Both the position numbers and the translations under genes were made by a program. This document shows positions 10,092 through 11,168 of a stretch of DNA of 64,000 nucleotides, piece after piece. Source of the stretch: an uncultured Phycisphaerales bacterium (GTDB lineage Bacteria; Planctomycetota; Phycisphaerae; Tepidisphaerales; Tepidisphaeraceae); the NCBI GenBank assembly GCA_963758525.1, contig CAVWVQ010000003.1:3648001-3712000 (forward strand). Reading direction: 5' to 3'. Position 1 is the first letter of the stretch, and every line of letters begins with the position of its first letter. The notes below the pieces were generated by a model, which was not told the origin of the DNA, searched no databases, and saw nothing but the letters and a program-made list of their open reading frames with translations.

Positions 10092-11168
10092 ATGTCAGAT
10101 GAACTGAAACAAATCGATGCTTTGCAGGATCAGGCGCTTGCGGAATTGGCGGGGATTTCAACAGCCGACGGGCTGGAGAAATTTCGCATCAAATACCTCG
10201 GCGCCAAGGGGCTGCTGAAGGATGCGATGACGCTCCTCGCGAAAGTGCCGCCCGACCAGAAGCGCGCGGTGGGGCAGCGCGTCAACGGCGCGAAGGAGAA
10301 GATCACCTCCGCTTTTGAAGCGGCGCGCCAGACGATTTCCTCCGGCGCGGCCGATGTCGGGCAGGCGGTGGACGTGACCGAGCCGGGCAGGGAATTGAAG
10401 GTGGGGAATCGCCATTTGCTGATGAAGGTCGTCGATGAGCTGACAGAGCTTTTCGGGCGAATGGGTTTCGCGATCGCGTCCGGCCCGGAAGTGGAAGATG
10501 AATTTCACAACTTCGTCGCGCTGAACATTCCAGAGAGCCATCCGGCGCGCGATCCGCTGGATAATTTTTATCTGGAAGGGACAAAGGGACAAAGGGACGA
10601 AGGGACAAAGGGGTCGCGATCGGCTTCACCTAGTCCCTCTGTCCCTTTGTCCCTTTGTCCCTTGCCCTCCCTTCTTCTCCGCACTCAAACCAGCACCGTT
10701 CAGATTCGCGTGATGGAGCAGCAGAAGCCGCCGATTCGCGTGGTAATTCCTGGGCGGGTGTATCGCCCGGACACGACCGATCAGACGCACCTTCCCATGT
10801 TTCATCAGCTTGAAGCGCTCGTCGTCGATCGCAACGTCACGATGGTGGATCTGAAGAGCACGATCATGCAATTCGTGCACGCCTATTTTGGTCCGGAGAC
10901 GAAAGTTCGGTTTCGCCCCAGCTTCTTCCCATTCACCGAGCCCTCGGCGGAGGTCGACGTCTGGTTCGAGGACAAGGGGCGTTGGATCGAACTGGGCGGC
11001 TGCGGCATGGTCCACCCCAACGTCTTCAAAAACGTCAATATCGATCCCGAAGTCTATTCCGGCTGGGCCTTCGGGCTGGGAATCGAACGGATCGCCATGC
11101 GGAAGTACGGAATATCGGACATCAGGTACTTCGTCGAGAATGACGTGAGGTTTTTGCGTCAGTTCTGA
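10092..11168 (+). CDS. pheS: Phenylalanine--tRNA ligase alpha subunit, with in-frame repeat-derived insertion
   Basis: HPAR, LLRTQTS, GRVYR, FPFTEPS, ELGGCG, GWAFGLGIER. Confidence 0.97.
   Translation: MSDELKQIDALQDQALAELAGISTADGLEKFRIKYLGAKGLLKDAMTLLAKVPPDQKRAVGQRVNGAKEKITSAFEAARQTISSGAADVGQAVDVTEPGRELKVGNRHLLMKVVDELTELFGRMGFAIASGPEVEDEFHNFVALNIPESHPARDPLDNFYLEGTKGQRDEGTKGSRSASPSPSVPLSLCPLPSLLLRTQTSTVQIRVMEQQKPPIRVVIPGRVYRPDTTDQTHLPMFHQLEALVVDRNVTMVDLKSTIMQFVHAYFGPETKVRFRPSFFPFTEPSAEVDVWFEDKGRWIELGGCGMVHPNVFKNVNIDPEVYSGWAFGLGIERIAMRKYGISDIRYFVENDVRFLRQF
10577..10663. repeat. Inverted octamer tandem repeat (AGGGACAA)n / (TTGTCCCT)n inside pheS
   Basis: agggacaaagggacaaagggacgaagggacaaag ... 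gtccctctgtccctttgtccctttgtccctt. Confidence 0.9.

Follow-up and report, generated by a model that had tools for sequence, protein, structure and literature searches.

The pheS gene of an uncultured Phycisphaerales bacterium, found in the 64,000-nucleotide stretch of DNA analysed here (the window), contains an 86-nt palindrome. With a probability of roughly 0.7, we read this palindrome as a copy of a genome-wide octamer repeat lodged in frame in a length-variable loop of PheS; it likely represents, without the gene, a cassette that is probably mobile, and is likely translated into a disordered, near-neutral loop rather than removed. The gene (10092–11168, forward strand; open reading frame list and TIGR00468 profile) encodes the alpha subunit of phenylalanine-tRNA ligase; its frame of 358 amino acids is intact and scores 326 bits in a profile search, against a TIGR00468 cut-off of 237 bits. 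No second full pheS copy was found by tblastn in the 6.47-Mb, 91% complete assembly, and the source names of the nearest database proteins suggest a place in Tepidisphaeraceae/Phycisphaerae. Genes that by eye are feoA- and feoB-like come next after pheS, so pheT is not adjacent, and two more arrays, GGTGATT x2.3 and CGTGAAAA x6.6, lie 3' of the pheS stop codon at 11180–11266.

The palindrome, all parts of which are given on the forward strand, was located by repeat search and consists of a purine-rich arm of four AGGGAC[A/G]A octamers (10577–10608, with ragged ends at 10574–10612), a 22-nt spacer (10609–10630) and a pyrimidine-rich arm of four inverted octamers (10631–10662); by spacer comparison the spacer is not common to other copies of the octamer family. 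The sequence-only reading of this DNA had reported a palindromic tandem repeat with four identical octamers here, and the arms and the count of units are as it described, but three of the 10577–10608 units are AGGGACAA and one is AGGGACGA; two of the inverted units are perfect and two have one or two changes. With up to two mismatches allowed, the 16-mer of the repeat matches 17 times in the window where 0.04 are expected, and 0 of 100 shuffles scored as high. Both arms and their flanks (10574–10675) are predicted to form a single long RNA or single-stranded DNA hairpin (RNA folding, -66.5 kcal/mol, z -7.75); an Rfam search of this hairpin gave no family at cut-off and only sub-threshold matches to generic microRNA-like hairpins. 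The codons at 10575–10673 add 33 residues in frame, E162 to L194, again as first described, and these are S/P/G-rich, predicted to be disordered by the structure model, and have no Pfam match beyond the PheS domains. By these searches the insert does not qualify as an intein or a self-splicing intron, no splicing domain or catalytic RNA fold having been found, and the AGGGACAA-type octamer is stop-free in every frame.

Loop length, counted from the aromatic residue that follows 'DNF' to the 'RTQTS' arginine (both excluded), is 36 in the source genome (G000), 7 in solved PheS structures of the E. coli type and about 22 in Thermus thermophilus. A class and phylum sample of 29 loci, the best 29 of 131 matches, has loops of 7–18 residues (median 8), none of which contains an array. 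In the organism's own family the loop spans 7–68 amino acids with a median of 20 among the 108 readable of 110 pheS loci (extraction demanded a stop-free frame; one unreadable locus is cut by a contig end and one is frameshifted), and the insertion site was therefore already permissive. The earlier statement that this loop is normally short thus holds for the E. coli-like structures and most of the phylum sample but not for the family or for T. thermophilus. Of the 92 loops that lack a significant array, six are at least 30 amino acids long, and some long array-less loops may be decayed repeats; because the loop is already long and variable in repeat-free relatives, the observation that the sequence-only reading had itself named as counting against it, an equally long loop in orthologues free of the repeat, has in part been made. 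Alignment with the PheS of relatives shows different repeats at the same place in loops of widely varying length. About a tenth of the family (L094-L105) has a divergent PheS with about 50% identity and a short loop, which suggests a replaced pheS.

A first structure model from 24 sequences was unreliable over residues 130–207 and was set aside in favour of an AlphaFold model from 93 sequences, which has a mean pLDDT of 85, falls below 50 at residues 169–171 and 173–188, and matches solved PheS folds (class II fold) with Z of 29–31. The loop whose position was to be modelled is thus a low-confidence, predicted disordered stretch in an otherwise confident PheS fold. The available part of a report on Mycobacterium tuberculosis PheS places the gate for the tRNA 3' end at residues 151–159 (PMC8136816), and by alignment offset the insert begins five residues past the equivalent stretch; it is predicted to be a disordered loop just past the tRNA-CCA gate.

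Arrays of 7/8-mers (at least 8 motifs) are present in the loop at 15 of the 108 pheS loci, where loop DNA amounts to 6.9 kb, and there are none in the remaining 103.5 kb of pheS coding sequence from the same 108 loci, which includes a second flexible linker. At least eight unit types can be read in these loops: the AGGGACAA type in G000, G107 and G067, and elsewhere CCCCGCGT, GGGTTCA, GGGTTCC, CAGCACT, GCAGAAC/ACGGACA, CAGAAGT, AATCGCA and CCGACCT; in G020 and G114 the repeats are nested. Two genus-mates of the source organism, G080 and G005, have other motifs in the loop, and a search of the genus-mates (81% and 94% complete) for the AGGGAC octamer array gave no match anywhere. In G107 (85% complete) the only AGGGAC array matches are those in the pheS loop (G107:C441:23371-23400), which may be left over from a family that has ceased to be active there. 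Sisters with near-identical PheS can have different loops (G100 and G120, G114 and G086); at the place of the hairpin in G100, its sisters G120 and G063 have a 12-aa loop in common. On PheS trees built without the loop (the 93-row tree excludes 12 divergent short-loop rows, one duplicate bin row and 4 broken or cut loci), array presence changes state at least 11 times, a count at only the low edge of the distribution for shuffled labels (mean 14, minimum 11), and PheS alone does not reject the hypothesis that the three AGGGAC-type loops go back to one origin (p-AU 0.46). Most of 28 database proteins read by eye (of 120 matches), which were chosen for likeness to the insert and are known at the protein level only, show a like peptide in the loop; among them is P0042, from another class of the phylum and named Pirellulimonas nuda by its source. 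By these comparisons one PheS loop is refilled repeatedly by different 7/8-mer families, a point that the earlier reading overlooked.

The source genome contains 376 heptamer and 322 octamer arrays, compared with about 39 and about 13 in a Markov simulation, and 63 arm arrays belong to the AGGGAC octamer. The purine-rich arm comes first in 135 of 155 inverted pairs. By a gene calling made for this analysis, which may miss insert-bearing genes, 605 of the 698 arrays are intergenic and 46 are internal to called genes; some arrays are chance repeats. In-frame hosts (20 examined) include ValS, RimO, RarA, PurL, photolyase, IOR, MurJ, RadA, NadA, DnaE2 and PglX. Together with the intact pheS frame, these genome-wide arrays uphold the description of a dispersed palindromic repeat lying in frame within a core enzyme. 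In the window itself, an intergenic element has its purine arm just past a stop codon (30881–31030, forward strand, repeat search) and its inverted pyrimidine arm, of AGGCACGG-type units, at 31126–31169 (forward strand, repeat and pair searches). The purine arm is made of AGGGACGA, a one-base variant, mixed with AGGCACG units, so that the octamer family said to be shared between pheS and an array near 30883 is the same only loosely. Other arrays in the window (5123–6552, 22840–26394 and 31165–31212) are built of TTCATTT/AATGAAA, CCTGAAC, ATTTGAG/ATCTCAA and a 13-mer.

The spacers of six paired AGGGAC copies are unrelated (median best match 7.75 against 6.0 when shuffled, none as high as 20), and no target duplication is seen in these pairs, the word shared by the flanks being 3.2 nt long, against 3.3 nt for mismatched controls (n = 6). 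In the AAGACGCG octamer family, by contrast, the spacer, about 94 nt long, is conserved (match score 91); this family occurs in regularly spaced runs (G000:C3:574311-575612, 3900309-3901377 and 4092535-4093827) and is MITE-like or array-like, unlike the other families. Motif sets differ between congeneric genomes, and orthologous sites in G100 (L136, L137, L139, L141 and L143) and its sisters G120 and G063, both genic and intergenic, often hold different hairpin families. The RadA and RarA loops used in G000 (radA, C3:2305978; rarA, C3:812377) and in G100 (L132, L141) are apparently the same, as judged from flanking residues, with different motifs. The notion that every spacer is old host DNA with new arms on either side was set aside: G100 pheS speaks for it and L136 against it, and the other sites compared (five of the 15 G100 regions; two of the extra sites are not G100-specific arrays) are uninformative because the sisters hold other hairpins there.

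Four-helix-bundle genes (TIGR02436) are present in 41 of 41 genomes and GxxExxY genes (TIGR04256) in 36 of 41, both tallies including G002. When the best match per genome is taken, which makes a selected set, 28 of 30 TIGR02436 loci have a 7–9-mer array within about 160–190 nt and 13 of 30 have an inverted pair around the gene; the corresponding figures for GxxExxY loci are 16 of 30 and 5 of 30, and only 3 of 82 other long ORF ends in the same loci have an array nearby. At a strict threshold in the source genome, an array lies within 400 nt of only 3 of the 8 four-helix-bundle genes and 2 of the 5 GxxExxY genes. The octamer found in pheS itself brackets such a gene: at G000:C3:4377024-4377700 (L235:2125-2850), dnaE2 contains in its +1 frame an intact 138-aa PF05635 gene with AGGGAC octamer arms on both sides, and the dnaE2 frame itself is open across the 744-nt loop. 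Nested cassettes occupy this dnaE2 site in 6 of 26 readable loci (G000, G014, G069, G028, G040 and G052), with three related octamer motifs, and add 150–230 residues to DnaE2; the cassette genes are intact and the host frame is open in all six, whereas the equivalent frame is stop-free in only 2 of 32 non-nested four-helix-bundle genes. In a quick tree of the four-helix-bundle proteins several like arm motifs group partly, a match that linkage alone could explain. We note that four-helix-bundle genes are nested likewise in DNA methyltransferase genes with an open host frame at L176 (G014) and L198 (G034), and that a TIGR04256 gene between pyrB-like and pyrC-like genes (G000:C3:275370-275910) is bracketed by inverted CGCGAAG-type octamer arms. 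The pheS octamer likely belongs to a cassette with the order purine arm, four-helix-bundle gene, pyrimidine arm. The view of the pheS copy as a selfish repeat making new protein is most likely right as regards translation; the refilling of the loop and the four-helix-bundle cassette were missing from it.

Among the 311 intergenic units of the TGAACCC heptamer family in the source genome, 288 retain TGA. In the four coding arms of this family (three in PheS loops and one in IOR), TGA is changed to CGA or TCA at 4 of 4 in-frame slots and kept at 12 of 12 out-of-frame slots (Fisher p 0.0005); the variant unit also turns up in 5' arms, which have no need of it, so a fairer null is about (1/3)^4 = 0.012, and the arms in this comparison are of the TGAACCC family and not of the pheS octamer. 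Since only the in-frame TGA is changed, translation is favoured over RNA removal. The matching residue is R or S in 13 proteins read by eye, as CGA and TCA encode, neither strand of the dominant octamers contains a stop, and the array in the G105 PheS loop runs one way and folds only slightly (-5.8 kcal/mol). From this avoidance of stop codons and from the single-armed cases we infer that translation of the pheS insert likely gives a disordered stretch tolerated by the enzyme, and that the pheS copy is probably a near-neutral passenger; the roughly 22 residues at this place in T. thermophilus PheS fit such tolerance. It is very unlikely that the hairpin is instead an intervening sequence of the mRNA, either cut, as RNase III cuts the IVSs of 23S rRNA, and rejoined, or hopped by the ribosome, to give a short PheS loop. 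The strong stem suits such removal, as do the heavy load of the extra DnaE2 residues and the fact that PF05635 is the IVS protein family (PMC4990558, available part), and the arithmetic permits it, because excision of 87 nt (10577–10663) or 81 nt (10584–10664) would keep the frame and shorten the loop to 7 or 9 residues. However, stop codons are absent from 108 of 108 readable pheS loops (a set for which a stop-free frame was demanded and which 2 of 110 loci failed to enter) and from 26 of 26 dnaE2 loops, the dnaE2 host frame stays open across every nested cassette, in-frame TGA is selectively lost, some inserts have one arm and hence no stem, and excision of known IVSs leaves fragments, according to the same part of that source, so that an mRNA would be destroyed. 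We give just as little credence to an adaptive insert, in which the peptide adjusts the entry of tRNA by the CCA gate, or the hairpin in the mRNA sets the pace of translation or makes the transcript more stable; the start of the loop so near the gate region would accord with this, as would the different hairpin families at orthologous sites in G100, G120 and G063, as if the slot mattered, but 93 of the 108 loci have no array, neither the sequence of the peptide nor its length (18–68 aa) nor the strength of the stem is conserved, and sisters with near-identical PheS differ.

Contigs assembled from three DNA runs (best share 0.22) gave scattered pieces, none of them bridging the insert. A contig from X3 that connects 10573 with 10686 most likely represents the short-loop pheS of a different organism. 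Frameshifts that are likely long-read assembly errors break valS (G000:C2:366884), purL (C3:1271683) and dnaE2 (about C3:4378100) away from arrays, and single bases in the source assembly are therefore uncertain; cassettes were considered as the cause of the valS and purL breaks and discarded, both breaks being simple frameshifts. The C-terminal half of valS contains a long repeat-derived in-frame insert. These damaged core genes and the lack of a bridging contig are what could be said for the pheS insert being an artefact of the long-read genome, which we regard as extremely improbable: its arms are imperfect and inverted, the frame is kept, and the independent G107 and G067 assemblies and protein P0001 have the same octamer type in the loop. 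A rather more serious alternative, though still an unlikely one, is that the arms arise locally, with slippage expanding a chance repeat and template switching inverting the arm around DNA of the loop, small genes being merely frequent neighbours. The unique AGGGAC spacers and the absence of target duplication agree with this, and the 14-nt spacer of the G100 pheS hairpin resembles the short loop of its sisters G120 and G063 (11 of 14 bases for G063, in the same frame), as though arms had been placed on both sides of host DNA; at another G100 site, L136, nothing of the spacer is seen in the sister. Local origin also sits badly with the recurrence of a few fixed motifs at hundreds of sites in a fixed polarity, with the different motif sets of congeneric genomes, and with the arrays that flank 28 of 30 four-helix-bundle genes.

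Under the preferred reading, a mobile-cassette repeat that is translated, the least secure step is the arrival of new arms, which might take place by DNA cutting and repair at hairpin-bearing or otherwise permissive sites. Cutting would be in trans by a protein that the element encodes, and the most likely candidate nuclease is the GxxExxY protein, which we take to have a nuclease-like fold. The arms would then drift by slippage and conversion, and selection would retain only insertions that preserve the frame, bring no in-frame stops and lie in tolerant loops. More tentatively, and at somewhat less than even odds, these elements could form an undescribed and widespread selfish class, in which motif-specific 7–9-mer arms surround a four-helix-bundle or GxxExxY gene, home to fixed hairpin slots with the arm motif read by the element's own protein, replace earlier families there, code in two frames within essential genes, and leave gene-less hairpin remnants that act as a generator of new loops.

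Our literature search, of limited coverage, returned no account of these repeats in Phycisphaerae, of repeats in the PheS loop, or of tandem arms around four-helix-bundle genes. The closest analogy, proposed already from the sequence alone, is with the Rickettsia palindromic elements (RPEs). In the available parts of two reviews these are hairpin repeats of about 100 nt, found between genes and fused in frame in conserved genes, with the one tested case, guanylate kinase, remaining active (PMC2229807, PMC10969869), and not every copy has a target duplication (PMC2229807). The pheS element is like them in being 86–102 nt long, multi-copy, a long stem-loop and in frame in conserved genes. RPE copies, however, share sequence and peptide. 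In the present repeats only the short tandem arms are common; each spacer differs from the others, one site can be taken over in turn by many motif families, and there is a full form that carries a gene. The comparison is fair in the sense that the element works like an RPE, but as there is no shared core and no target duplication we do not file it as an RPE or MITE.

The arms themselves resemble the G-rich heptamer GGGAATC of Xanthomonas and the STRR-type repeats of Nostoc, which come in about four units, inverted and dispersed (PMC4692102), and the dispersed TAACTGA heptamers of Beggiatoaceae (PMC4679880). As far as the available parts of these two papers go, units on the 7-base scale, a preference for four units, convergent inverted pairs, a mostly intergenic location, positions that differ between close species and some overlap with ORFs are shared by those repeats and the present arrays. 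Here the pheS unit is 8 nt, AGGGAC[A/G]A, rather than 7, although heptamer families coexist in the source genome; the arrays lie deep in catalytic domains of core enzymes, whereas theirs are at protein ends; and there is a link to a gene, while the same parts of those papers state neither a mechanism nor a four-helix-bundle association. In the 23S rRNA IVS of Coxiella, an S23p/PF05635 ORF lies inside a stem-forming boundary (PMC4990558, available part). The dnaE2 cassette with AGGGAC arms likewise has a PF05635 ORF within a stem and the pheS copy does not, being gene-less and in a protein-coding frame rather than in rRNA; the cassettes described here differ from the IVS in lying between or inside protein genes, in having tandem 7–9-mer arms and in leaving the host frame open.

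Taken singly the pheS insert is ordinary, but it exemplifies clearly, and in a form open to testing, a class of repeats that is poorly described and for which there is a candidate autonomous form. The cassette to which its repeat is linked carries a gene and is open to cloning and mobility assays, and if the link between arms and gene holds, the origin of the spread of 7–8-mer repeats becomes directly testable. In-frame repeat insertions in Rickettsia core genes and dispersed heptamer repeats with no stated mechanism were already known; the pheS case joins the two, in that the loop of one essential enzyme records at least eight repeat families and shows a signature of selection for read-through.
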